Shown here in pieces: positions 3,865 through 16,094 of a stretch of DNA of 17,488 nucleotides (position 1 is its first letter; every line of letters starts with the position of its first letter). The stretch comes from Nitrososphaeria archaeon (GTDB lineage Archaea; Thermoproteota; Nitrososphaeria; JACIWG01). The position numbers and the translations under genes are program-made. Below the pieces are notes generated by a model. It was not told where the DNA came from, did no database searches, and saw nothing but the letters and a program-made list of their open reading frames with translations. Location: the NCBI GenBank assembly GCA_050011875.1, contig JBEKIG010000026.1, forward strand, positions 1 through 17,488, in the 5' to 3' direction.

Positions 3865-4279
3865 TGCCCTCTTCACCATTTCGGGAGTCTCTTCGGTTTC
3901 TTAACTCCTTAAATAATTCCCCTAATACTTTAGCATTTTCAGCTAATTCTTTGCTTGAAGCATCTTCCTCTAAGCCTAGAATTAATTTGATAAGTGCTCT
4001 ATCCTTTTCAACAAGTTTTTTGTTTTCCAGCGTTACATTTCTATTCTCTTCTAAAACGTATTCGTCTTTTAGAATAGTGCGATATTGGGACAAAAGTGTT
4101 GTCCACAAATCTACATTTTCTTGAACTAACTTTTGTATCCACCCGTAAGTTGGTTTAGAGGGCCCTTTCGGCATATTTTGGTAGATTGCATTAATTTGTC
4201 CTTTTAATAGTGAGGCTTCATCCTTCTTTTTATTTATATAAGTATCCCATTGTCTTTTAATGTTCTCATCTTCAGTCAT
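3851..4279 (-). CDS. Hypothetical helical / coiled-coil protein (142 aa)
   Basis: ATG start overlapping the upstream RHH gene (ATGACTGA). Charged, Leu-rich heptad-like segments. No family recognised. Confidence 0.75.
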   Translation of the reverse strand: MTEDENIKRQWDTYINKKKDEASLLKGQINAIYQNMPKGPSKPTYGWIQKLVQENVDLWTTLLSQYRTILKDEYVLEENRNVTLENKKLVEKDRALIKLILGLEEDASSKELAENAKVLGELFKELRNRRDSRNGEEGIVRP

Positions 4280-4439
4280 TCTTTTGCTTCACCTTCTTCG
4301 ATTGCTTCTCTATCCATGCCTCAATTGCCTCTTCTAACGCATCGCTGATATTTCCTTTCTTCATGCCTTTGCTTTCGAATACAGCCCTTCTAAATTGCTC
4401 TTCAAGTTTATCATCTAACACTATATTCATCTTACCCAT
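4272..4439 (-). CDS. Small ribbon-helix-helix (CopG/MetJ-like) DNA-binding protein, 55 aa, absent from the ORF track
   Basis: Manual translation gives MGKMNIVLDDKLEEQFRRAVFESKGMKKGNISDALEEAIEAWIEKQSKKVKQKND*. It has an alternating beta strand (KMNIVL), helix A, a G-N-I-S turn and helix B (SDALEEAIEAW). Confidence 0.82.
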   Translation of the reverse strand: MGKMNIVLDDKLEEQFRRAVFESKGMKKGNISDALEEAIEAWIEKQSKKVKQKND

Positions 4440-4476
4440 TTAGGTCAAGGTCTATATGGAGATATAATTATATTAA

Positions 4477-4716
4477 TATTTAGAGATAGCTACATATATA
4501 GAAAATCATATTAAGAGAATTGACGCTAACTCTTACAAAGTTAATTCCCAATCTGGAAATGGCGTATGTGAAGTCTTCAGCACCGAGTTAGGTTGGAAAT
4601 TTTCTTGTCCAGATTCCATTTATCGTTGTGTGAAGTGCAAGCACATTTATGCAGTTGAATTTTCCCTTTCAATAAGAAAAGAAGTTGAAATAAGGAAAAT
4701 AGTTTCATGCGTTTGA
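4477..4716 (+). pseudogene. Start-less, truncated N-terminal SWIM zinc-finger fragment resembling archaeal SWIM-DDE (IS6-like) transposases
   Basis: The open frame reads YLEIATYIENHIKRIDANSYKVNSQSGNGVCEVFSTELGWKFSCPDSIYRCVKCKHIYAVEFSLSIRKEVEIRKIVSCV*. It has YKVxSQSG and a SWIM CxC...CKH motif with the first Cys replaced by F. There is no start codon and no DDE domain. Confidence 0.7.
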
Positions 4717-4878
4717 GAAACCAATATCTCAGTAATCAAAATAATAACAGTTTACTATGTGATTTTAGAAATAATCATTATACAAACTATTTTTACTAAA
4801 GCGTCAAAGACAGGAGATACTAGATAAAGTTGAGACGTAATATAAATTAAATCAAATATAGATGTTGGTACCGGTTGA

Positions 4879-5934
4879 TTATTTTTTCGATTCAATATCC
4901 TTTATTTCTAACTCAATGGATTTGATAATGTCTTCTATGTCTTGAATTTTATCAAATATACTTCGCAGGTCGTCAATACTTAGAGTTTTATGTCTTAAAA
5001 CATCATCTTTCCCTTTCAGTAATTCTATGACACTTATTTCAGATAGAGTTGCCTTGTTTGAAGTGTCCTCTGTAATATTTAGCAGCGCATTTAACACGTC
5101 TTTACTATGTGTAGTAATTACAACCTGCCAATCTTTTGATAAAAGCCATCTTAAGAACTCCTTAATTATATTTGGATGTAATGAAGTCTCAAAATCATCT
5201 AAAAGAATAAGATGAGGTTCAAATAGTTGTAGCCAAAGTGCAATAAGAACGACTCTTGTTATACCTGATCCAAGGTCTTTAATATTAACGTAGTAAGGAA
5301 CATTTTCAGAGGTTTGTTTTCTGCCGACTATTTCAGGATTAAAAAGAAGTTCTGTGTATTCATCATCAACGCATTTATTTACAATCTCTTGCATTAAACT
5401 TAAATTTACACCATTTTTTATCAGAGTATTTTTAAAAGTCATACTTTGTTCTAAAATAGTTTCAATAGAGCTTAGATGATTAGGATCGTTTGGTATATAT
5501 ACTGTCCAATTAAATCTTTCCGTCTCACCTTTATATCTGAAGAGACTCCCTAACTGATCAAAGAATTCACGTTTTTTATCTGAATATCTGATAATGCCCC
5601 CATCCTCAATTTCCAAATTATAACTTGGTTCTTTGTCTTGGAGGGTTAACCTGACAAATTCGTTACCTATTGAGATACCTATAGTCGCTTTACCTGCATA
5701 TTTATATAATAATGATAAAAATTGGAAATGACTTTTTGTTATATTCTGCAGTCTGCTTAAATTAGTTGGTAATGTTAAATCTGTAGGAAATGGAAATAGA
5801 GATAATGCTTCCAGAATCGAACTTTTTCCTGCATTATTTCTACCTATCAGAACCACAAATTTTGAGAGTTTTATTGGTTCAATACAATTTCTTATCCCTC
5901 TAAATTCTTTAATATCGATTTGATTTATTATCAA
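4879..5934 (-). CDS. ABC-type ATPase of the AAA_15/AAA_21 (OLD/AbiEii-like) group
   Basis: N-terminal IxIKEFRGI strand, Walker A GRNNAGKSS, signature-like DLGSG, Walker B/D-loop LILLDDFETSLHP and H-loop ITTHS. No TOPRIM or nuclease domain is evident. TTG start. Confidence 0.9.
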   Translation of the reverse strand: MIINQIDIKEFRGIRNCIEPIKLSKFVVLIGRNNAGKSSILEALSLFPFPTDLTLPTNLSRLQNITKSHFQFLSLLYKYAGKATIGISIGNEFVRLTLQDKEPSYNLEIEDGGIIRYSDKKREFFDQLGSLFRYKGETERFNWTVYIPNDPNHLSSIETILEQSMTFKNTLIKNGVNLSLMQEIVNKCVDDEYTELLFNPEIVGRKQTSENVPYYVNIKDLGSGITRVVLIALWLQLFEPHLILLDDFETSLHPNIIKEFLRWLLSKDWQVVITTHSKDVLNALLNITEDTSNKATLSEISVIELLKGKDDVLRHKTLSIDDLRSIFDKIQDIEDIIKSIELEIKDIESKK

Positions 5935-6353
5935 GTGGTCATTTATATTATTTCCATTAGGTTAATATGTATTTCGTCTTTTACAAATATTCTGAACATA
6001 ATTTCTCCCGTACGTAATCGACAATGTCTTAGACACATAATAAATAGGGGGAAATTACCTCTCGTTGAATTAGTAATCTCCTTTTTTATAGATTTTGCAC
6101 ATTTTTCACTATTATATTTTATAACTTATTATTTTCTTAATCCTTCAGAACATATAAAGTATATACGCAGGTGGAAAATCGAGAAATTGGCGATATAGGG
6201 TAAAAAGTGAAGAATCGAAACTATCTTCTCCTTTATAAGATGTCTTGATACTATAAAGAGATTTAGGTTATAAGACAAAAGACGATATCGTAAGCAGATT
6301 AAAGGTTCAATTCGCCACTTCTTTGCGATCTTTTCAGTCTTTCGGAAGCCTAT

Positions 6354-7004
6354 TTATACTGTAGGGCTTTCAACAGGTTGGGGTTTTTTCTTTCCTGAAC
6401 CCTTTGGCCTTCCCCTTCTTCTTGGCGTCTTTTTTTCTTCTTCAGGGGTCCCAGAAGGCTCTTGTTTAGGTGTTACTTCTACCACTTTTGAAGACTCTTC
6501 TTTTGCAACTGCTGCAATCGGCGCTGCTATTTCTTGTCCAACAGTTGAAGGCTCTTGAGGAATTTCAGGTGGAGCAACAGTCAAATCTTCTTTTGCAGGG
6601 AGAACCTGTTCTGTTGGAGCCACGGTTACAGAAGGAGGCTGCACAGCCAGCGATTCAGATTCTGGTTTAGGCGCTTCTTCTACCACCTTTGAAGGCTCAC
6701 CTTTTACAGCCGCTATAATCTGCTCCATTGTTCCTTTTGTAGCAATTGAAGTCTGCTGGATAATCTGTGGTGGCGCAATAGGTATGCTTGCTTGTGTAGT
6801 TGGAACCTGTCCTGTTGGCACCTCAGCTGTAGAAGGAGGTTGCTCTGCTATTTTTTCAGATTCTGGAGCTGGTTTATTAGATGTCTTTTGTTCCGTCTTT
6901 TTTTCCTCCATCGGTTTTCTGCTCAAAAGTAGGTAAAGCAATATCACTATAACTATCGCGGCGACCAGTATCACGATCAGTTCCCAAACGTTCATCCATA
7001 TCAT
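6354..7004 (-). CDS. Single-pass membrane-anchored Pro/Glu/Ala-rich protein with a C-terminal AT-hook
   Basis: N-terminal TM helix LIVILVAAIVIVILLYLLL followed by SRK, a long low-complexity region with an internal repeat, and C-terminal PRRRGRPKGSGKKK (6384-6425). Confidence 0.82.
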   Translation of the reverse strand: MIWMNVWELIVILVAAIVIVILLYLLLSRKPMEEKKTEQKTSNKPAPESEKIAEQPPSTAEVPTGQVPTTQASIPIAPPQIIQQTSIATKGTMEQIIAAVKGEPSKVVEEAPKPESESLAVQPPSVTVAPTEQVLPAKEDLTVAPPEIPQEPSTVGQEIAAPIAAVAKEESSKVVEVTPKQEPSGTPEEEKKTPRRRGRPKGSGKKKPQPVESPTV

Positions 7005-7247
7005 ATATACTTAGAAAAAGGATGCTTATAAGCGAATAAAAAATTAAAACAGTGTTACCTCCAATTTGTATCCCTTTTTATAATCGTAATCCGGGAGCAC
7101 CTATATCCTTCTCGGGCTGAAGCCTAAGTCGTCAACAAGCTGCTTAATTATGTCCTCCTTCTTCTCCATGTACCGTACATCCTAACTCATCATTTTTTGA
7201 AATAAACGTCACCATTATGGTTTGATATGTCAATCAGCAACATAATT

Positions 7248-7319
7248 TGTAATTTATTTTGAACCTTATGATATTAAATGGAGTTAATCAACTATAAACT
7301 TTAATAAAAGTATTTCATA
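7248..7319 (+). repeat. Direct repeat copy 1 (duplicate of the hydrogenase promoter region)
   Basis: The core 7267-7304 matches 12071-12108 at 36 of 38 positions. Both copies then share AAGTATTTCATA and are preceded by TGTAAT(T/C)TATTTT. Confidence 0.88.
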
Positions 7320-7327
7320 TAAAAAAT

Positions 7328-7662
7328 TTACCTTATGGCATATTTATTCAAAATATTTTTGGGAATAACAAATATTATGACGGCTATAACTGAAGTAAGT
7401 ATTGCTTGTCCCCATGAGGCATCGAACAAGTGCTTAAACAGTGCTAACCAAATTATCAGCCGTATTATAGCGACGGCGAGCCAGGCAAAGAAGTACCCAA
7501 ATACGCTTCCGATAATCACTCCAAACACCACTATCCATACGGTATCTGTGAACTTTGCCTTACTACCTCCAACAATAGCCCTTCCAGCGAGCCATAAGAA
7601 GGGTGAGATAATTATGATGTTCAGTATCAGGTGTAAAGAAGGGTGTCTAAATTAAAAGCCAA
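7328..7662 (-). pseudogene. Frameshifted small multi-pass membrane protein
   Basis: A TTG at 7662 after a GGTG RBS reads MAFNLDTLLYT then stops. Restoring one base near 7630 joins it to LILNIIIISPFLWLAGRAIVGGSKAKFTDTVWIVVFGVIIG...KHLFDASWGQAILTSVIAVIIFVI. The ORF track shows only 7328-7531. Confidence 0.65.
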
Positions 7663-8289
7663 ACACTGCACCTGAAACAAGAACGTGTTTCTCAATATAA
7701 ATAGTTTTTTGGTTGGCCTTGCTACTTCTTTTGTTAGGCATGCACGAAAAAAAGTGAGAAATTTTAGTCGCTATATAAATATGGTAGAAGCTGAATAGGA
7801 CTAGCATTCCGTAATAATGTTGTCTATGTAAGGTTCAACGAGGCTGGGATAAAGTGAGGAAAGATGGAATATAACTGAAACTTCTTGAGGAGTTTATTAA
7901 GAAAATAGGAGGAACACCGTGTTCCTTGACTGTTATGCCTTATAATTTTAGAAGACGAGAAAGACGATCAAGACACAATAATCCTGATAAATCAACTCCT
8001 TAGCCTTAAGTTTCTAAATAGTTATCTTCAGCTTTGCTGTGCTCATGCTTTCCAAAATGACTTCGTTTTAATATTAGTGATGCCCACGGAAGAAGTCAGA
8101 GTTCAAAGTATTCGCCTACTGTTTGCGGACTGGATTCGTTCTCTTCTGAACTATTTAGCGTTTCAAAGTTACTTGGTTCTTTTCTTCAACGTGTCTTGTT
8201 ATAGTAGATAAACTTGAATAGCGTTGATAATTACTGTTAAGCAGTTGGCCATTATAAGGCCAAAAGAGATAAAAATAGAGAATATTCTA

Positions 8290-9321
8290 ATGAGGATGAA
8301 CGGATGTGCTGTGGAAATCAAGATAGTCACAAGAACGGATTGGCCATCTTTCAGTAACATTGCATCGACTATATGTAAGGCAATCAGGCCCATATGTGCA
8401 TGTACAGTGCAGGATTGGAAAACTGCTACTCCTGGCGGATACATACTTTTCATCGATACTGTGCATGCTGAATCCCTTAAATTCCTTGAAAAGATTTTGT
8501 TGAAGAGCAATGTCGTCTTCTATGGCACAACAGAAGGGATGAGCCTTCTCGACCCCAAGTCGCTTGCTGTTGCAAAACGTGCCACAATAGTTGCTGTAAG
8601 CAATTTTGTGAAGCAGATGCTGGAAGAAATTGGAGTACCAGTAGCCGGAGTATTGCATCATGCACTAGATATGGAAGACAAAGATGTAGACCCTCATTCT
8701 TGCAAGAAATGGAAAATGAGAACGGAAGGAAAGGCAGTTGTTCTGACGATCTCCGCAAATCACCCAAGAAAAGGTTTAGAATTACTATTAGAGGCTTACA
8801 GAGCTGTAGAACAAAAAGTAGAAGACACATTCCTCATCATACATTCACAACAACATGGCTATTGTGACTTGGACAAAGAGGCAAAAAAAAGCGGTATCAG
8901 AAGATTTCATTTTACAAATAGATTTGGAGAGATGAGACAACAGGAGATTAATGCACTTTATAAGATATGTAAAGTATATGTCCAACCTAGCCTCTCGGAA
9001 GGCTTCGGCCTACCTATTATAGAGGCTTTTCGATTCAACAAGCCAGTTATCGCAGTAGATGCACCACCCTTCAACGAAATAATCAAGCATAGGAAAAGTG
9101 GAATCCTTGTACCGCCTACAGATATTAGATGGCACAACTTCGAGAACAAAGTAAACTTCAAAATGCACAACTATAGTGCAGAGGATTTAGCAGACGCAAT
9201 CATTGAGTGCATTTCGAATAAAGTCCTCTATACTAGAATGCGAACTAATATACTCAGAGAAAAACACAACTGGGACGCACAAAAACTCTATCCAAAACTT
9301 CTGGACTACTTTAAAAGGTAA
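8290..9321 (+). CDS. Glycosyltransferase family 4 (GT-B, retaining)
   Basis: AVSNFV, HPRKG and VQPSLSEGFGLPIIEAF (E-x7-E) motifs and KPVIA. The start is uncertain (TTG 8224, ATG 8290/8296 or GTG 8311). Confidence 0.92.
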   Translation: MRMNGCAVEIKIVTRTDWPSFSNIASTICKAIRPICACTVQDWKTATPGGYILFIDTVHAESLKFLEKILLKSNVVFYGTTEGMSLLDPKSLAVAKRATIVAVSNFVKQMLEEIGVPVAGVLHHALDMEDKDVDPHSCKKWKMRTEGKAVVLTISANHPRKGLELLLEAYRAVEQKVEDTFLIIHSQQHGYCDLDKEAKKSGIRRFHFTNRFGEMRQQEINALYKICKVYVQPSLSEGFGLPIIEAFRFNKPVIAVDAPPFNEIIKHRKSGILVPPTDIRWHNFENKVNFKMHNYSAEDLADAIIECISNKVLYTRMRTNILREKHNWDAQKLYPKLLDYFKR

Positions 9322-9400
9322 CGATACAACCTGAACAACGTAGATTGAGTTTTTCCCATAAGATTTAAGTTCGACCTTCATAAAGTATACTAGAATACAA

Positions 9401-10048
9401 ATGGCTATCACTATCGATAAGATCGTAGCATACATTATAGAGTTGGGCATGATGCTTCTTCAAGTAGCGATCGTTTTGGTTGTAGCGATAGTTGTAGGGA
9501 AAATAGGTGGATGGATGGTAAACAAAGTGTTTAGCAGGGTTCATATTGTTGAAAGCTTTAGAAAGAGCTCTATAGGACGGGCAATACTAAGAGCGGGATA
9601 CACTCCTGCATCATTTCTTGCGACCTGCTTCAAATTCGTGGTCTACGTTTTTGCATTGTTCGTGATAATTGACATCTTCTTCCCAGAGAACCAAATGGTT
9701 TCGAATGCGCTGGCATTCATTCCAAAGTTAATTGGTGCAGGCCTTATACTTCTGCTTGGATCCTTCTTTGGAGACAGCGTGGAAGAAGTCTTTGTCACAG
9801 GTGTACAAGTAGGAAACCAGATAAAGGTCAGCCTAGGTCAGGTTTTAAGGTTTGTCGTCTACTTCGTTTCGATAACCATAGCATTGGCGTATCTAGGATT
9901 TGATGTGACAATACTCTACATCTTTGCACAAGCAGCTGCACTTGCAATTGGAATTTCTTTTGGGGTCATAATCGCGATATTACTGATAAGCGAATACAGG
10001 GAGGACTTCAAAACCTTGCTTAAGAAGGAGGTTAGTAATGAAGGTTGA
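9401..10048 (+). CDS. MscS/CmpX-like transmembrane protein (TM-helix repeats, no cytoplasmic MscS cage)
   Basis: Two repeated membrane units (AIVLVVAIVVGKIGG...FKFVVYVFALFVII and FIPKLIGAGLILLLG...LRFVVYFVSITIALAYLGFDVT) followed by AAALAIGISFG, similar to MscS TM2-TM3. Confidence 0.75.
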   Translation: MAITIDKIVAYIIELGMMLLQVAIVLVVAIVVGKIGGWMVNKVFSRVHIVESFRKSSIGRAILRAGYTPASFLATCFKFVVYVFALFVIIDIFFPENQMVSNALAFIPKLIGAGLILLLGSFFGDSVEEVFVTGVQVGNQIKVSLGQVLRFVVYFVSITIALAYLGFDVTILYIFAQAAALAIGISFGVIIAILLISEYREDFKTLLKKEVSNEG

Positions 10049-10775
10049 AGCTATGTTCTTTGATTATGATGGAACCCTTAGCCCAATAGATGTTGGAAGG
10101 GAAGAAGCAGGCCTCTCGCCAACACTTGAGCACACATTAGTTCGCCTTTCGAAAAAAACATTAATTGGAGTCGTAACAACCAAGGACTTTAAATTCATCA
10201 GCAGAAGAGCTGGCTTCGCACAGGTCTTAGCATGTGTAGGCGGACTTGAAATTTTATCCAAAGGAGATGGAGAATACAGGGTTTTCTATAAATATAGAAA
10301 GGGAAAGCAACTAAAAATCCAAACTTTATATAAAGGAATTCCTCGCAACTTATTCTTCGTTGAGGAGAAGCATTTCTTCACAGGAGAAGTCGTAGGCTTT
10401 TGCTTAGACTGGAGAGGACAATACGGTTCATTCAATAAAATAAAAGATTACGTGAATTATGTAAGGGAAAAAGCACGTAAGAGTTCTCTATACATAGTCC
10501 AAGGAAGAAACTCACCATTCTTAGATGTCTATTTATCAAGAATTGATAAAGGTATGGCTGTCAAAAGAATCAGCAGGAAATTCGCTTTGAACCTGGCGAA
10601 TTGTATGTACTTTGGTGATTCGGAGATAGATAATAGTGCATTTAGGAGCGTAGGCTTTTCTTTTGGTGTACTACATAAAGAAAATAAGAACACTAGACTT
10701 GAATGTGACAGATACGTTAAGTTGGAGGATCTTCCTGTATTCCTTAAAGACTTACTAATTTCTTTTAATGCTTAA
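10038..10775 (+). CDS. HAD subfamily IIB phosphatase, trehalose-6-phosphate-phosphatase-like
   Basis: Motif I FFDYDGTLSPI, motif II VVTTK, cap-domain LDWR, motif III DKG and motif IV YFGDSEID. RBS AGGAGGT. Overlaps both neighbouring genes. Confidence 0.85.
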   Translation: MKVEAMFFDYDGTLSPIDVGREEAGLSPTLEHTLVRLSKKTLIGVVTTKDFKFISRRAGFAQVLACVGGLEILSKGDGEYRVFYKYRKGKQLKIQTLYKGIPRNLFFVEEKHFFTGEVVGFCLDWRGQYGSFNKIKDYVNYVREKARKSSLYIVQGRNSPFLDVYLSRIDKGMAVKRISRKFALNLANCMYFGDSEIDNSAFRSVGFSFGVLHKENKNTRLECDRYVKLEDLPVFLKDLLISFNA

Positions 10776-12054
10776 GATTGGACGGTCGAACGATTTGGTA
10801 AAGCCTTCCGACGGGCTGAGAGTTGGTATAATAATGTATCAGACGAGCAACAGCAAGGGGCAGGAACTAGTCGCCCAAAGAATGACCAGAGAATTCATCA
10901 GACTTGGTCATAGCGCATACTTGATTACTTCGCCATATAAGGATGGGAAAAGGGTAATATCCGACGAACTCTTCGAAAAAAGTGAGAAGGGTTATCTTGT
11001 CGTTGAAAACGACACAATGCAAATCCCAATTATTAGGGTGAATGGTTACATTAGCTCTTGGCCACCCAGGAGGATAATGTTCAGAGATTTCATCAGCGTT
11101 CTTAAAAGGATAGTCGATGATCTAAACTTGAATACGATAATAACCCATAGTACGTTATGGAATGGCCCAGAGGAAGTCGTCAAGTTTTCAGAATGGTGGA
11201 ATATACTGTACGAAAGTAAGATGGTAGATCATTCGTTGATATATCTTCACATGTCCCACTATCAGCCTCCATTAGTATCAAGGTATGAGCCCATAGAGCT
11301 GGCGTATAGAGTTGCATGGAACAGGTCATTTTTCCCTTTGATCTTTAAGAAAGCCGATCTGATACTGTGCACTACTCCCATTGAAATGGAACATATGACC
11401 AAGTTGGGATGCCCACCAAAAAAGTTATTTCTTTACCTGGGTGTGCTTGACGAAAACCTAGTCGAATTAGGTGCCAAAGCATCTCTCACGAACTTTGCTA
11501 GAAAATATAATATACCAGAGGATAAGAAGATAGTCTCGTACATTGGAACAATGGAAAAGAGGAAGAACCCTCTTGCAGTAGCGAAGGTAGCTCGTCTGCT
11601 CTCAAATCAGAGAGATCTATATTTCGTTCTAGCTGGAAGACCTGGAGGCCAAGAAAAGGAAGTTAAACGTGAAATTAGAAACTTGAACAACATTAAGTAC
11701 GTAGGCGAAATATCAGACTCGGACAAGGCAGACCTCTTAAGCGGATCCTACGTCAACATTATTCTTAGTCATATGGAAGCTTTAGGTCTGACGCAGATTG
11801 AATCCATGTACTTTGGAGTTCCAATCCTGACATCAGCAACTGATGGCCAACGTTGGTTGGTCAGAGACAAAGTAGATGGAATTCACTTGAAAGGTCCTGA
11901 GGATATTGGCGGCGCAGTCGAAAGTCTGCGCTATCTTGCAGAACGTCCAGAAGAGAGGGCGAGGTTATCAGCAAATGTCAAAGAAAGGGCGAAAATGTTT
12001 CTAATGACCACCATAATCTCTTCACTAATTGAGAAAATCATGACTATAATGTAA
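10768..12054 (+). CDS. Glycosyltransferase family 4 (candidate non-classical trehalose-6-phosphate synthase or activator GT)
   Basis: N-terminal SKGQELVA loop, GTMEKRKN and LSHMEALGLTQIESM (E-x7-E). Translationally coupled to the HAD gene. The specific function is inferred from context. Confidence 0.88.
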   Translation: MLKIGRSNDLVKPSDGLRVGIIMYQTSNSKGQELVAQRMTREFIRLGHSAYLITSPYKDGKRVISDELFEKSEKGYLVVENDTMQIPIIRVNGYISSWPPRRIMFRDFISVLKRIVDDLNLNTIITHSTLWNGPEEVVKFSEWWNILYESKMVDHSLIYLHMSHYQPPLVSRYEPIELAYRVAWNRSFFPLIFKKADLILCTTPIEMEHMTKLGCPPKKLFLYLGVLDENLVELGAKASLTNFARKYNIPEDKKIVSYIGTMEKRKNPLAVAKVARLLSNQRDLYFVLAGRPGGQEKEVKREIRNLNNIKYVGEISDSDKADLLSGSYVNIILSHMEALGLTQIESMYFGVPILTSATDGQRWLVRDKVDGIHLKGPEDIGGAVESLRYLAERPEERARLSANVKERAKMFLMTTIISSLIEKIMTIM

Positions 12055-12154: not shown

Positions 12155-13177
12155 ATGACAAACTTCATCATGCCTGAAGAAGGTTTGGAACATCTAATTA
12201 AGACGCTGTGCGGATCGTATGAGGTTTTTGGGCCGGTCCGGAAAGGTGTTGAATGCAGTTTCGAGAAGATTACATCAGCAAAGGACCTCTGGCTCGATTA
12301 CCCGACGACGATATTGCCTCCTAAGAAGTTCTTTACTCCTCCGAGGGAAACTATCTTCACATTTAAGGAAGATAAGATTTCAAAGATAGAGGACATGATA
12401 CCAGAAGAGAGACAGATCCTTCTTGGGGTTCATTCATGTGATATGGCTTCATTTACATTTTTGGACAGAGTCTTTCTAGGCTTTAGAAGCGATCCAAGAT
12501 ATCTTAGGCGTAGAAACAACTTTCTTATATTTGCTCTCACGTGTAAGAAAGTTTCAGAGACATGTTTCTGTCAGTCAATGGGGACAGGCCCCGAAGCGCC
12601 TTCCGGATATGACGTACTGATGACCGATATTGGTGGAAGATATTTGTTGGAAGCGTCTTCTAGTGGAGGAAACGCGCTATTAGGATCGCTAGGGTTTCAG
12701 CAGGCCACAGTTGAGGATTTTGAAGCAAAGCGGGGATGCCTTGAAAGCTTGAAGGGACAGTTCAAAAAGGCTGTAAACCGATCTGGATTGGTGGAATTAG
12801 CCTACAACAATCAGGAGCATCCCGTTTGGAAGAAATATGGGAATATATGTGTAGCTTGCGGACAGTGCGCGATGGTCTGCCCCACATGCTTCTGCTTCGA
12901 TGTCAAGGACAGGATGGACCTATCCCTACAAAGCGGAGAAAGATACCGGGAATGGGATGTCTGTCTTCTCCTTGAGTTCGCTGAAGTTGCTTTGGGCGGT
13001 AACTTCAGGAAATCGAGGGATGCTAGGCTCAGGCAGTTCATGTGCCATAATCTAAGTTACGGCGTAATGCAATATAATTTAATGAAGTGCGTGGGATGTG
13101 GACGTTGCATAAAGGCTTGCCCTGTCCAGATAGACATTACTGAAATCGCAAGGGAGTTGAGGGAGGTGTCGAGTTGA
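12155..13177 (+). CDS. hydB: Group 3b [NiFe] hydrogenase (sulfhydrogenase) beta subunit, 4Fe-4S dicluster
   Basis: PPKKFF, GVHSCD, CFCQSMGTGP, CVACGQCAMVCPTCFC and CVGCGRCIKACP motifs. First gene of a BGDA operon. Confidence 0.95.
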   Translation: MTNFIMPEEGLEHLIKTLCGSYEVFGPVRKGVECSFEKITSAKDLWLDYPTTILPPKKFFTPPRETIFTFKEDKISKIEDMIPEERQILLGVHSCDMASFTFLDRVFLGFRSDPRYLRRRNNFLIFALTCKKVSETCFCQSMGTGPEAPSGYDVLMTDIGGRYLLEASSSGGNALLGSLGFQQATVEDFEAKRGCLESLKGQFKKAVNRSGLVELAYNNQEHPVWKKYGNICVACGQCAMVCPTCFCFDVKDRMDLSLQSGERYREWDVCLLLEFAEVALGGNFRKSRDARLRQFMCHNLSYGVMQYNLMKCVGCGRCIKACPVQIDITEIARELREVSS

Positions 13178-14010
13178 AGGACCCATATGAGAGAGACGTG
13201 GCAGAGATACTAGGGGTCCAGCTTGAGACTTCCAACACTAAGACCTTTGTTATGAAGTTTCTTGATGAAGGAAGACAGAGTAACTTTAGCTTTATACCTG
13301 GCCAGTTCATTGTCATATCGATTCCAGGTGTTGGAGAAGCGATGTTCTCGATATCGTCTAGCACATCAAATCATGAGAACTTTTCTACAACGATACGGAA
13401 CGTCGGCAGGGTGACAGGAATGATACATAAGTACAACGTTGGGGACAGGATATTGGTGGGAGGACCATATGGAAGCGGATGGCCGATGGGTCAGCTTGAA
13501 GGCAAAGATATTATGATCGTGACCGGCGGCATAGGTCTTCCTTCTCCAAGGCCCGTGATAAACTACATAAATGAGCATCGAAGAGATTTTGGTTCTCTAG
13601 AGATTTTGTACGGCACAAGAACTCCCGCAGAGAGCGTCTTTGCTTGGGAACAAGAAGCTTGGAGAAAGATGGAAAGCACTCGGCTAGCACTGTGCGTGGA
13701 CTATGTACCTGAAGGGGTTCAGTGGGAGCATAAGGTGGGAGTTGTTACGACACTGTGCGAGGAGATGGTGACGAAGCCAAGAAATGCTGTCGCCCTTATC
13801 TGTGGGCCCGAGGTCATGATGCACTTTGTCGTCTTAGACTTGTTGAAAAGAGGTTTTCATGAAGACCAGCTTTACCTAAGCTTGGAGCGTAGGATGCGGT
13901 GCGGCATAGCGCAGTGTGGACACTGCCAGCTTGGACCGAAGTTCGTGTGCAAAGACGGACCTGTCTTCAGGTACTCAGAAATCATGGGACTTCCTGACTG
14001 TGGCATTTAA
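13174..14010 (+). CDS. hydG: Group 3b hydrogenase gamma subunit (FAD/NAD(P)-binding, 2Fe-2S)
   Basis: PGQF, FSISS, GPYGSGWP, GGIG, CGPEVMM and ERRMRCGIAQCGHCQ...CKDGPVF motifs. TTG start with a GGAGGTG RBS, overlapping the hydB stop. Confidence 0.95.
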   Translation: MKDPYERDVAEILGVQLETSNTKTFVMKFLDEGRQSNFSFIPGQFIVISIPGVGEAMFSISSSTSNHENFSTTIRNVGRVTGMIHKYNVGDRILVGGPYGSGWPMGQLEGKDIMIVTGGIGLPSPRPVINYINEHRRDFGSLEILYGTRTPAESVFAWEQEAWRKMESTRLALCVDYVPEGVQWEHKVGVVTTLCEEMVTKPRNAVALICGPEVMMHFVVLDLLKRGFHEDQLYLSLERRMRCGIAQCGHCQLGPKFVCKDGPVFRYSEIMGLPDCGI

Positions 14011-14025
14011 TGGAGGTTGAGACGA

Positions 14026-14793
14026 ATGCCAACAGAGAAAAAGCTCAGAGTTGCCGTATACAAGTTCACAGGTTGCGCGGGATGCCAGATGGAGTTTCTT
14101 AGGCTGGAGGACGAACTCCTAGACATTGTCAAGAAGATTGAGTTCGTCTACTTTAAGATGGCACAGAACAGAGATGAACTTGAACGATATGACCTATGCT
14201 TTGTAGAGGGCTCGGTCTCTACACCTAGAGAACTTGAAGAGATCAAGTTGATAAGGGCGCAGACGAAAACCCTAATCGCATTCGGGGACTGCGCGATAAC
14301 AGGCTGTGTTCCATCCATTCGAAACTGGCTTTCGCAGTCTGAAGTGGAAAGGGCAGTCTATAGAGACACTTCTCCCATAAGATCCTTTAAAGTGGGCGGA
14401 ATAGGAGAATACGTTCCTGTCGACATATCGTTATCTGGTTGCCCCCCTCACAAGGATATGATATTTGCGACGATAAGGTCTTCTCTGCTCGGTATAAGGC
14501 CTGACCTGCGGAAGCACGCGGTCTGCATGGAGTGCAAGCTACGCGAAAACGTCTGCATATTGACAAGCCTTAGCAAACTGTGTATGGGTCCGGTTACGAG
14601 GGGTGGTTGTGGTGCAATATGTCCCACGTATGGAAGGGAATGTGAAGGATGTTATGGACCGATGAGTGATGCGAACCCGTCCCCACTCGCTTCGGAGTTT
14701 CGCAGGCTTGGAATTAGCACCGACGATCTCGTTAGAAAGTTCAGAAAATATGCGGGAACATCTAAGGAATTTCGGGAGGTTTCAGGACTATGA
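14026..14793 (+). CDS. hydD: Group 3b hydrogenase delta (small) subunit
   Basis: CAGC, EGSV, GDCA and GCPP proximal-cluster motifs, then CMECK...CMGP...CGAICP...CEGC. The ATG at 14026 is preferred over the TTG at 14017 because GGAGGT lies at 14012-14017. Confidence 0.95.
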   Translation: MPTEKKLRVAVYKFTGCAGCQMEFLRLEDELLDIVKKIEFVYFKMAQNRDELERYDLCFVEGSVSTPRELEEIKLIRAQTKTLIAFGDCAITGCVPSIRNWLSQSEVERAVYRDTSPIRSFKVGGIGEYVPVDISLSGCPPHKDMIFATIRSSLLGIRPDLRKHAVCMECKLRENVCILTSLSKLCMGPVTRGGCGAICPTYGRECEGCYGPMSDANPSPLASEFRRLGISTDDLVRKFRKYAGTSKEFREVSGL

Positions 14794-16094
14794 GTAAAAA
14801 AGAGGTTACAGATGCCAGGACTGATGCCAATAAGGCTGAGGTGAGCTATGTTGCCAGGGTGGAAGGGCAGGCTGGTATCAACGTCGAAGTTACAGGAGCG
14901 GGAGAAGCGAGTGCCCAGTTTAAAGTTTTTGAACCAATGAGATTCTTTGAGGCTTTCCTAGTCGGGAGGAGATATCACGAAGTCCATGAACTAGCTTCAA
15001 GAATCTGTGGTATCTGCCCGATAGCTCATCAAATGACCGCGCTCCGAGCTGTTGAAAATGCGTTTAAGGTCGAAGTTACAGCCCAGACAAGGGCTCTCAG
15101 GAGGCTCCTGTCTCTAAGCGCATGGATACAGAGCCACACGCTTAGCCTCTACTTTCTAACGGCACCCGACTACCTCGGCTTCGGCGGTGCATTCGAGATA
15201 GCAAAGGATAACATTGATGTCGTTAGGCAGGCGCTTAGGCTCAAGAAGTTGGGTAACGATATAGGAGAGCTAATAGGTGGAAGAGCGGTTCACCCTATTT
15301 CGGCGATTGTTGGAGGCTTCACAAAGGAGCCGACAAAGGAAGGCCTGGCTGAGATTAGGCTGAGGTTGAAGAAAGAAAAGGAAGCTATATGGGATGCGGT
15401 CGAACTGTTCCGCAGATTCGACTACCCTTCAGTTGACCGTGAGACAGAACTAGTAGCGATTTCAAGTGATGAGGAGTATGCCGTAAACGAGGGAAAACTC
15501 ACGTCCAGCAGTGGCCTCAACGTGCGCGAAGGAGAATACCGCACTCACGTGGAGGAGAAGGAAGTGAATTATTCTAATACAAAGAAATCATTTATTGACG
15601 GCAAGGAATTCCTTTCCGGCCCGATCGCTAGAGTGAGCCTTAATTATGGAAAGCTCACATCCGACGCAAAGAAGGCGTCTGACCAATTAGGGTTCAGTCC
15701 ACCTTCCTTTGACCCTTTCATGAATATTAAGGCGAGAGTTATCGAGATAGTCTATGCCCTGGACGAGGCTGTTAGGATAATTGACAACCTTAGGCTTGGC
15801 TTTAGTGAGCAGCCTATCAAAGCAGAGACAGGAACGCCATGCGAAGGCGCCGCACTTACAGAGGCGCCTAGAGGGCTTCTATACCACTGGTACAAGTTTG
15901 ATTCTTCCGGCACCGTGCAAAAGGCGGACATAGTTACGCCAACCGCACACAATTCCGCTAGTATTGAGAGTTCGCTCTGTTCGCTAGCGCCTAAGCTCCT
16001 CAAACAGGGTCAGGACCTGACTTTGGGATGTGAAAAACTCATTAGGGCCTATGACCCCTGTATATCGTGCTCAGTTCATGTGACAAGAATTTAA
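14790..16094 (+). CDS. hydA: Group 3b [NiFe] hydrogenase alpha (large) subunit
   Basis: RVEG, L1 RICGICPIAH, GRAVHP, EAPRGLLYH and L2 DPCISCSVH, followed by a 4-residue extension (VTRI). Confidence 0.97.
   Translation: MSKKEVTDARTDANKAEVSYVARVEGQAGINVEVTGAGEASAQFKVFEPMRFFEAFLVGRRYHEVHELASRICGICPIAHQMTALRAVENAFKVEVTAQTRALRRLLSLSAWIQSHTLSLYFLTAPDYLGFGGAFEIAKDNIDVVRQALRLKKLGNDIGELIGGRAVHPISAIVGGFTKEPTKEGLAEIRLRLKKEKEAIWDAVELFRRFDYPSVDRETELVAISSDEEYAVNEGKLTSSSGLNVREGEYRTHVEEKEVNYSNTKKSFIDGKEFLSGPIARVSLNYGKLTSDAKKASDQLGFSPPSFDPFMNIKARVIEIVYALDEAVRIIDNLRLGFSEQPIKAETGTPCEGAALTEAPRGLLYHWYKFDSSGTVQKADIVTPTAHNSASIESSLCSLAPKLLKQGQDLTLGCEKLIRAYDPCISCSVHVTRI

Follow-up and report, generated by a model that had tools for sequence, protein, structure and literature searches.

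The window analyzed in this work is a 17,488-nucleotide (nt) stretch of DNA from a Nitrososphaeria archaeon (contig JBEKIG010000026.1 of assembly GCA_050011875.1). Four co-oriented genes of the + strand were identified in its list of open reading frames (ORFs) at positions 8224/8290–12054, encoding, in this order, a short GT4 glycosyltransferase (GT), named here GT4-1, an MscS-like membrane protein (MSC), a HAD-IIB phosphatase (HAD), and a second GT4 glycosyltransferase (GT4-2). GT4-2, HAD, and a membrane element constituted the universal core of this cluster, conserved across Thermoproteota, and a protective sugar may be formed through this cluster by a route not recognised so far.

MSC (9401–10048, +) encoded an all-helical MscS-like membrane protein of 215 amino acids (aa) with a PF05552 match, orthologous to TTX_1304a of Thermoproteus tenax. 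HAD (10038–10775, +) encoded a HAD-IIB phosphatase of the trehalose-phosphate phosphatase (TPP) type (245 aa; TIGR01484) and overlapped both neighbors. GT4-2 (10768–12054, +), the conserved core enzyme, was a Glycos_transf_1 protein of 428 aa belonging to the orthologue family of T. tenax TTX_1305. The accessory GT4-1 (8290–9321, +), also a Glycos_transf_1 protein, was 343 aa long when read from the ATG at 8290; alternative starts were TTG at 8224, ATG at 8296, and GTG at 8311, and the consensus onset of the family lay near 8311. The overlap of the last three genes, noted in the first-pass annotation of the window, was confirmed (11 nt for MSC/HAD and 8 nt for HAD/GT4-2). The three genes are therefore probably translated as one unit, with HAD translationally coupled to both MSC and GT4-2. 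GT4-1 and MSC were separated by an AT-rich gap of 79 nt; a TATA-like AT-rich stretch spotted there by eye (9369–9391, +) may be a putative internal promoter for MSC-HAD-GT4-2. The hundreds of conserved homologues found for each protein indicate that all four genes are real. Genes of GT20 proteins were absent from the window, as had been stated in the first-pass annotation, and no match to GT20, TreT_GT1, or TreY was found in the whole genome (97.21% complete).

GT4-2 matched Glycos_transf_1 in Pfam with 95.8 bits. Its C-terminal domain contained K266 and the glutamate pair E337..E345, aligned to sucrose-phosphate synthase (SPS) and MshA, which correspond to the conserved Lys and the EX7E motif of GT4 enzymes. 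The N-terminal motifs YQTS..KGQE, WPPRR, HSTLWNGPEE, and HYQPP were specific to the family, the homologues of which with about 50% identity bore the source labels Vulcanisaeta, Bathyarchaeia/Bathyarchaeota, Sulfolobales, Desulfurococcaceae, and Zestosphaera. The best matches of the GT4-2 profile in the PDB were SPS (6kih, 89 bits) and MshA (72 bits), followed by WlaC, GlgM, and TreT; PimA scored 38.8 bits. The AlphaFold2 (AF2) model of GT4-2 had a predicted local distance difference test (pLDDT) value of 91.2 and was most similar in Foldseek to MshA, SPS, and BshA, with identities of 13–18%. The acceptors of these nearest solved enzymes are inositol-1-P (MshA), fructose-6-P (SPS), malate (BshA), and glucose-1-P (GlgM); most of the enzymes thus use small, soluble, often phosphorylated acceptors.

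HAD exceeded the NCBIfam cut-off for HAD-IIB (TIGR01484, 58.1 against 41.8) and matched Hydrolase_3 in Pfam (32.8 bits); the motif FFDYDGTLSPI was present. The Pfam and NCBIfam results agree with the labels given to the four proteins in the first-pass annotation, i.e., two GT4 enzymes, a membrane-only MscS-like protein, and a HAD-IIB protein with a TPP-type motif. Motifs I–IV of HAD were intact, with a IIB cap: D9, D11, K171, and D198 were invariant in the family alignment, and T47, T48, and D194 were nearly so. The best PDB match of the HAD profile was OtsB2 of Mycobacterium tuberculosis (5gvx, E 2.3e-13, profile positions 5–214), and the further matches that covered the greater part of it—1u02 (positions 5–238), 5dxi, 5dxl, and 6upb—were all trehalose-6-phosphate (T6P) phosphatases (T6PPs), while non-TPP matches were confined to its C-terminal part (positions 90–218 at most). 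The trehalose-phosphatase type proposed for HAD is thus consistent with its full-length solved relatives. Some members of the family exceeded the PF02358 cut-off (39 bits for the HAD of locus L119), and many carried a precomputed PF02358 match. In hhalign, 180 columns of the HAD family were aligned with the protein Saci_0016 of Sulfolobus acidocaldarius (probability 97.5, E 5.6e-12), and the DYDxTLS start was common to both. Distant HAD relatives with 25–28% identity on Nitrososphaeraceae contigs were uninformative; two of them were located beside glutamine synthetase, and none beside a GT.

The only Pfam match of MSC was PF05552 (25 bits, cut-off 22), and its NCBIfam match to NF033912 was limited to the N-terminal part of that model. 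Neither the beta-domain of MscS (PF00924) nor a C-terminal domain was detected in MSC by Pfam; the protein stops after the last helix, at residue 215. The AF2 model was all-helical, with a pLDDT of 83. When this model was compared with 48,161 chains in VIA-align, the top two chains were both MscS, of H. pylori and E. coli: 4hw9 (Z 9.0, 107 aligned residues) and 7dlu (Z 8.1, 110 aligned residues), Z values of this size being indecisive for helical proteins. Residues 106–215 of the model aligned with MscS residues ~18–138, comprising TM1–TM3, and YnaI aligned over 151 residues (Z 7.7). No match at E ≤ 0.001 was found for the MSC model in Foldseek; a local match to 6vyk had a probability of 0.99 and a root-mean-square deviation of 1.9 Å over 87 columns, with a non-significant E-value. 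An exhaustive search with the MSC profile gave 2944 representatives (E ≤ 1e-3). Among the top 150, the median length was 233 aa, and the cytoplasmic part of full MscS was matched by only 3. Since MSC proteins are typically of about 230 aa and lack the cytoplasmic domain, MSC is, judged by its homologues, a family of its own rather than a truncated MscS gene.

The neighborhood of GT4-2 was analyzed in 41 loci, which comprised 33 GT4-2-anchored regions (of 34; that of G232 was left out) and 8 loci found through HAD, with ORFs scored by profile hidden Markov models. Thirty of these loci had MSC at a distance of up to 1 kb from GT4-2. Nine loci had no MSC; their GT4-2 was 573–649 aa long due to a C-terminal extension of 165–212 aa with one or two hydrophobic segments. 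A weak bPH_2 match was found in three of the four extensions scanned, and the nine fused forms made up a single clade in the maximum-likelihood (ML) tree (97/96). Of the remaining two loci, one was cut off by the end of its contig, and in the other GT4-2 was a pseudogene, truncated and carrying a stop codon. Every assessable GT4-2 was thus linked to the membrane either by a separate MSC or by a fused extension, and never by both. Because MSC alternates with the membrane extension of GT4-2, one of its roles would be to keep GT4-2 at the membrane or to regulate it there. In the first-pass annotation, MSC was regarded as an MscS-like channel releasing the solute; the membrane protein probably resembles the MscS membrane domain, but the cytoplasmic domains of the channel are absent, and the alternation suggests tethering or regulation of GT4-2 at least as much as solute release.

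True MscS channel genes recurred inside the cluster, so the osmotic-channel context suggested at first pass was retained: full-length MscS was encoded in 4 of the 41 genome loci and in 8 of 79 metagenome loci anchored on GT4-1, six of these eight genes being directly upstream of GT4-1. In loci L158 and L159, a full MscS of 306–310 aa was encoded between GT4-2 and GT4-1, and in L158–L160 the gene of an Lrp/AsnC-type regulator was located immediately upstream of MSC. HAD and a GT4-2 of 649 aa were also encoded by a contig labelled as a Limnocylindrales (Chloroflexota) metagenome-assembled genome (L009); this GT4-2 nested among Bathyarchaeia rows in the ML tree, due to either misbinning or gene transfer.

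The distribution of the genes was assessed in 301 evenly sampled genomes of Thermoproteota, with thresholds of E ≤ 1e-40 for GT4-2 and E ≤ 1e-10 for HAD; these counts are descriptive, as related genomes are not independent. GT4-2 was found in 35 genomes and HAD in 37: both were present in 29, only the GT in 6, only HAD in 8, and neither in 258. Four of the six GT-only genomes belonged to group g41 and encoded TPSP, a fusion of a GT20 trehalose-6-phosphate synthase (TPS) with TPP, and one held a pseudogene. The eight HAD-only genomes included five from the family Thermoproteaceae (f17), among them G169, the genome of TTX_1305; its GT, with 121 bits against the GT4-2 of the window, was unlisted at E ≤ 1e-40. 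Outside this family, HAD was present in 17 of 18 carriers of an intact GT. GT20 was confined to Thermoproteaceae (19 of 20 genomes); among the 23 genomes from outside the family with GT4-2 and/or HAD, neither GT20 above the cut-off (0/23) nor TreT_GT1 (0/23) was found.

HAD was encoded within 1 kb of GT4-2 in 17 of the 41 loci and within 6 kb in 22 (10 and 15, respectively, among the 33 GT4-2-anchored regions); in several carriers, e.g., the f29 genomes, it was located elsewhere in the genome. The co-occurrence of GT4-2 and HAD across Thermoproteota holds whether or not the genes are adjacent. The order MSC-HAD-GT4-2 of the window was exactly repeated in loci L121, L124, L144, L145, L015, and L154, the last being the closest metagenome relative. 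Conservation of the gene neighborhood elsewhere, which had been put forward at first pass as a test of the cluster, was found in these and other loci. In the g41 loci (L132, L135, L138), genes of full MscS, TPSP, GT, MSC, DUF5752, TreT, and a HAD homologue were present within ~11 kb. There, TPSP adjoined GT, and the HAD homologue was 3–4 kb from GT, with DUF5752 and TreT in between; TPSP was convergent to GT in all 11 g41 genomes with both matches listed and co-directional in G169. The flanking genes otherwise varied, and the module therefore appears to be self-contained. Broken frames were observed in two genomes: in G144 (locus L015, identical to L127), MSC and HAD were split, HAD having one TAG, and in G156 (L146), GT4-2 was truncated, with one TAG. 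These are decaying copies or assembly errors.

TTX_1305 and TTX_1304a were located in G169 by an exact match to the published 27-nt primer. GT4-2 matched TTX_1305 with 121 bits (phmmer, E 2.4e-38, 27% identity), and MSC aligned with TTX_1304a end to end (37 bits). In the ML tree, TTX_1305 and ten g41 GTs formed a clade with 100/100 support and a branch length of 1.07, nested inside the GT4-2 family of 41 rows as sister to the slower g60 clade (96/92). MSC and GT4-2 are thus, on sequence and tree evidence, distant orthologues of msc and gt in T. tenax. The relation to this operon pointed out in the first-pass annotation therefore goes beyond analogy and is one of orthology, with the adjacency of msc and gt being shared.

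The putative active site of GT4-2 was compared using 62 alignment columns identical in 36 family members from outside Thermoproteaceae. GT4-2 of the window kept all 62 residues, a representative of g60 kept 48, and TTX_1305 kept 25. In the N-terminal domain of TTX_1305, only 9 of 32 invariant columns were retained; the losses in the protein include G31-Q32-E33, W98-P-P-R-R102, H127, H164, Q166, N185, R265, and G360-Q361, and the EX7E glutamates are preserved. The putative active site thus appears to be strongly conserved in the family and lost in the T. tenax clade.

The T. tenax operon msc-gt-tpsp (TTX_1304a, TTX_1305, TTX_1304) encodes the "trehalose synthase complex" and was described as unique to Thermoproteus and Pyrobaculum (PMC3634074). 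TTX_1305 binds TPSP and is needed for its TPS activity; in the presence of TTX_1305, the activity of the isolated TPP domain rose from 8 to ~20 U/mg (PMC3634074). BLASTP similarity between HAD and the TPP domain of TPSP was found at motif I only, indicating that the HAD of the window is not orthologous to this domain.

GT4-1 matched Glycos_transf_1 in Pfam with 99.9 bits. Its family is tight (54–63% identity, 335–337 aa), and R160-K161-G162 and the EX7E pair E237..E245 were invariant in the alignment. The top PDB match of the GT4-1 profile was TreT, restricted to the C-terminal domain (E 2e-11); the N-terminal domain TreT_GT1 (PF21269) was found neither in GT4-1 nor anywhere in the genome of the window. 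The loci anchored on GT4-2 or HAD yielded no GT4-1. A search with the GT4-1 profile revealed that the gene was missing from 42 of the 43 genomes carrying GT4-2/HAD, and the single copy present was a pseudogene. The latter finding does not support an equal partnership of the two GTs, as in the two-GT4 complex considered at first pass; the core consists of GT4-2, HAD, and the membrane element.

Among the 79 metagenome loci anchored on GT4-1, 23 had at least 2.5 kb on both sides and were assessable. GT4-2 was located within 2.5 kb in 19 of them, 11 of which also contained HAD; neither gene was present in 4. The view that GT4-1 is unlinked to the cluster was rejected on these counts. The arrangements included GT4-2(−) GT4-1(+) HAD(−); HAD, Lrp/AsnC, MSC, GT4-2, full MscS, GT4-1; and MSC, GT4-2, GT4-1. 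Since this neighborhood is kept despite the shuffled order, GT4-1 is likely to be functionally linked to it; judged by these loci, it is an accessory member of the neighborhood, outside the core.

GT4-1 narrowly passed the cut-off of PF20706 "GT4-conflict" (28 against 26 bits). The reading of a defence system from this weak match was dropped, as none of the four cluster proteins was matched in PADLOC. The ESM Atlas feature clusters nearest to GT4-1 were glycosyltransferases, mostly with viral labels (Taleaviricota, Uroviricota). Only 5 loci with 32–33% identity were found when viral contigs were scanned with the GT4-1 profile; because of this, the virus-labelled neighbors remain only a lead. 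In locus L119 of genome G304 (4640–9776), the cluster was disrupted by a TnpB-like ORF (Cas12f1-like_TNB) between HAD and GT4-2; beside this ORF, the GT4-1 pseudogene mentioned above, a remnant with three stops, and an MscS beta-domain fragment of 185 aa were found.

Taken together, these data point to a two-step pathway: with a probability of about 50%, GT4-2 would make a sugar phosphate, probably T6P, and HAD would dephosphorylate the product at the membrane. The T6PP relatives of HAD, the trehalose island of g41, and the MscS genes inside the cluster suggest a context of osmotic stress and trehalose. The cluster would then be a module for a stress (osmo)protectant sugar, with three conserved parts and an accessory GT. 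In this scheme GT4-2 would be a catalytic nucleoside diphosphate (NDP)-sugar:sugar-phosphate glycosyltransferase, most likely forming trehalose-6-phosphate, and HAD would strip the phosphate to yield the free solute. MSC would hold GT4-2 at the membrane; it may make the activity of GT4-2 dependent on membrane tension and may, in addition, be an exit for the solute. GT4-1 would act as a second, separately promoted GT, by which some lineages would obtain a different or a longer product. The GT of T. tenax/Pyrobaculum would be a degenerate descendant, which kept only a binding/activating role after the GT20-TPP fusion had arrived. The cluster is probably the widespread, ancestral form of the trehalose stress operon of T. 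tenax. Regarding the initial overall reading, a system of compatible-solute synthesis and release, the orthology with T. tenax, the conserved neighborhood, and the TPP-like HAD were upheld, but the kinship with Saci_1249, the equality of the GTs, and the plain channel were not.

More tentatively, and with the odds rather against it, the GT4-2 family may be a third, unrecognised class of synthases of T6P or another sugar phosphate that is active only when tethered to the membrane. Such an enzyme would be docked to a cage-less MscS-derived protein or fused to a membrane domain, tension would gate the synthesis of the solute and perhaps its release, and the "activator" of T. tenax would be a degenerate relic.

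Several results weigh against the two-step pathway. The only characterized member of the family, TTX_1305, had no TPS activity in vitro when alone and gave no trehalose with the isolated TPP domain (PMC3634074). The HAD of the window was under the curated TPP cut-offs (PF02358, 22.9 against 27; TIGR00685, 39.5 against 68.05). The g41 and g60 genomes keep HAD beside a TPSP with its own TPP domain; therefore, the substrate of HAD need not be T6P. In Foldseek, small-acceptor GT4s were preferred over lipid-acceptor GT4s by a narrow margin (~E 1e-19 against 1e-16), and membrane tethering would also fit a lipid acceptor. The g46 loci were flanked by GT2 and NAD-epimerase genes. Finally, HAD was present in only 2 of 41 close relatives, including the genome of the window itself, and was not found in genome G001 of the same genus or in 8 other genomes of the same family. 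Since the module is patchy among close relatives, it may have been acquired laterally by the lineage of the window.

Three other explanations were considered in comparison with the synthase–phosphatase reading. The same two steps could lead to another glycoside (sucrose-like, of glucosyl-glycerol/glycerate type, or a glycosyl-inositol), which GT4-1 might extend. The best matches of GT4-2, SPS by sequence and MshA by fold, are in line with this explanation, as are the label of inositol-3-phosphate glycosyltransferase given by JGI to some GT4-2 homologues, the S6PP annotation on 27–34% of members in the Atlas clusters nearest to HAD, and the persistence of HAD beside TPSP in g41 and g60. However, only T6PPs matched over most of the HAD profile, and the family is linked, both biochemically and genomically, to trehalose genes alone, which makes a different glycoside rather unlikely. 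It is also unlikely that GT4-2 is a non-catalytic activator or scaffold in a split, all-GT4 trehalose complex, where GT4-1 would be the synthase replacing GT20 TPS and HAD would replace TPP. TTX_1305 does activate TPSP by complex formation while having no TPS activity of its own (PMC3634074), and GT4-1 retains the RKG and EX7E motifs, has TreT as its top PDB match, occupies the place of TreT in the g41 loci, and accompanies GT4-2 in most assessable metagenome loci. Yet GT4-1 lacks the TreT_GT1 domain and is absent from nearly all carriers. The carriers from outside Thermoproteaceae also lack GT20 and TreT; therefore, an "activator" GT4-2 would have nothing to activate there. The strong conservation of its putative active site, lost in the T. 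tenax clade, also argues against a scaffold.

According to the third explanation, the acceptor of GT4-2, which would be bound to the membrane, is a lipid, a lipid-linked molecule, or a protein; HAD and MSC would be accessories, and the cluster would be unrelated to compatible solutes. The obligatory link of GT4-2 to the membrane, the genes flanking the g46 loci, the label "involved in cell wall biosynthesis" given to the GTs by some sources, and the mostly virus-labelled GT clusters nearest to GT4-1 would fit such a role; TTX_1305 was also reported to be closest to PimA (PMC3634074). In our analysis, however, the GT4-2 profile matched PimA much more weakly than SPS and MshA, HAD was TPP-like and co-occurred with GT4-2, MscS channel genes and the Lrp/AsnC regulator were found inside the cluster, and the module was self-contained among otherwise variable flanking genes. 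Considering also that the biochemistry of T. tenax links this GT to trehalose synthesis (PMC3634074), we regard the third explanation as quite improbable.

The module was encoded in many archaea having no recognised synthase of trehalose or compatible solutes, including abundant sediment Bathyarchaeia and cultured Vulcanisaeta. If GT4-2 and HAD are a true synthase/phosphatase pair, this gap would be filled and a new GT4 sugar-phosphate synthase would be added. The question of why TPSP of T. tenax needs a GT4 "activator" beside a truncated MscS, a puzzle since 2013, would receive an answer: the pair may be the remnant of an older, widespread pathway. The strict alternation of a stand-alone MscS-like partner with a fused membrane domain also makes GT4-2 a specific example, open to experiment, of enzyme coupling to the scaffold of a mechanosensitive channel.

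Regarding the other genes of the window, those upstream of the cluster were unrelated to it. An ATPase of the AAA_15/AAA_21 type (4879–5934, −) matched PDC-M38A in PADLOC (90 bits), followed by AbiLi, AriA, and Old; it was located within a low-GC stretch (4001–6000, GC 0.31–0.32), beside ORFs with no family match, and this stretch may be a small defence or mobile island. Downstream of GT4-2, beyond an AT-rich spacer of 100 nt, an operon of four genes for a [NiFe] hydrogenase was found (12155–16094, +). Its products were identified in Pfam as a Fer4_22 protein, a protein with FAD/NAD-binding and DHODB Fe-S domains, the small subunit (Oxidored_q6), and the large subunit (NiFeSe). The GC content was 0.48–0.50 across this operon and ~0.39 in the GT4/MSC/HAD cluster.

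Among the closest known systems, the operon of T. tenax shared its layout with the cluster: in both, a membrane-only MscS-like gene preceded a homologous GT4 (directly so in T. tenax), and a TPP-type function was part of the unit. A promoter is located in front of msc in T. tenax (PMC3634074), and the TATA-like stretch spotted by eye precedes MSC in the window. Unlike in T. tenax, HAD was inserted between MSC and GT4-2, the phosphatase was a stand-alone HAD-IIB protein in a genome devoid of the GT20 TPS domain and TPSP, an extra GT4 (GT4-1) was present, and the GT kept the complete set of invariant residues, most of which are lost in TTX_1305. The msc-gt core was also spread over many other lineages of Thermoproteota.

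In S. acidocaldarius, Saci_1249 is a GT4-type TPS and Saci_0016 a confirmed HAD TPP (PMC7688234). Saci_1249 was located in genome G132 by an exact match to the published 22-nt primer; the protein of 444 aa starts with MFSVSIS and ends with YGKNVNL, as the primers predict, and Saci_0016 was found in the same genome, ~1 Mb from the primer match. This pair is similar to the cluster in being a GT20-independent, GT4-based TPS/TPP route with a non-canonical HAD in a TACK archaeon. However, Saci_1249 aligned with the GTs of the window by its C-terminal donor domain only (GT4-2 profile columns 187–412, GT4-1 columns 160–359, hhalign), scored 39 bits with GT4-2 and 26 bits with GT4-1 in phmmer, and, when its own genome was searched with the GT4-2 profile, was outscored by three other GT4s. 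Thus, the parallel with the S. acidocaldarius enzyme drawn at first pass does not extend beyond a common C-terminal GT-B domain, and by these comparisons neither GT of the window belongs to the GT4-TPS family of Saci_1249.

MSC may resemble MscS channels in the membrane domain (PF05552 and the VIA-align matches above, with indecisive Z values) but had neither the beta nor the alpha-beta cytoplasmic domain. In SPS with its phosphatase (SPP) and in MshA with its phosphatase, a small phosphorylated acceptor is glycosylated by a GT4, and the phosphate is then removed by a phosphatase. These systems include the nearest solved relatives of GT4-2 and share the two-step logic proposed here, but their similarity to GT4-2 was limited to the GT4 fold and the donor domain; to our knowledge, none of them is tied to a membrane partner. 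In a full-text literature search, which included PMC3634074 and PMC7688234, the module was undescribed in genera other than Thermoproteus and Pyrobaculum. Systems of this kind are known; new are the wide distribution of this one, its form that lacks GT20 and has a separate TPP-like HAD, the rule of the membrane element, the degenerate state of the characterized GT TTX_1305, and the accessory GT4-1.

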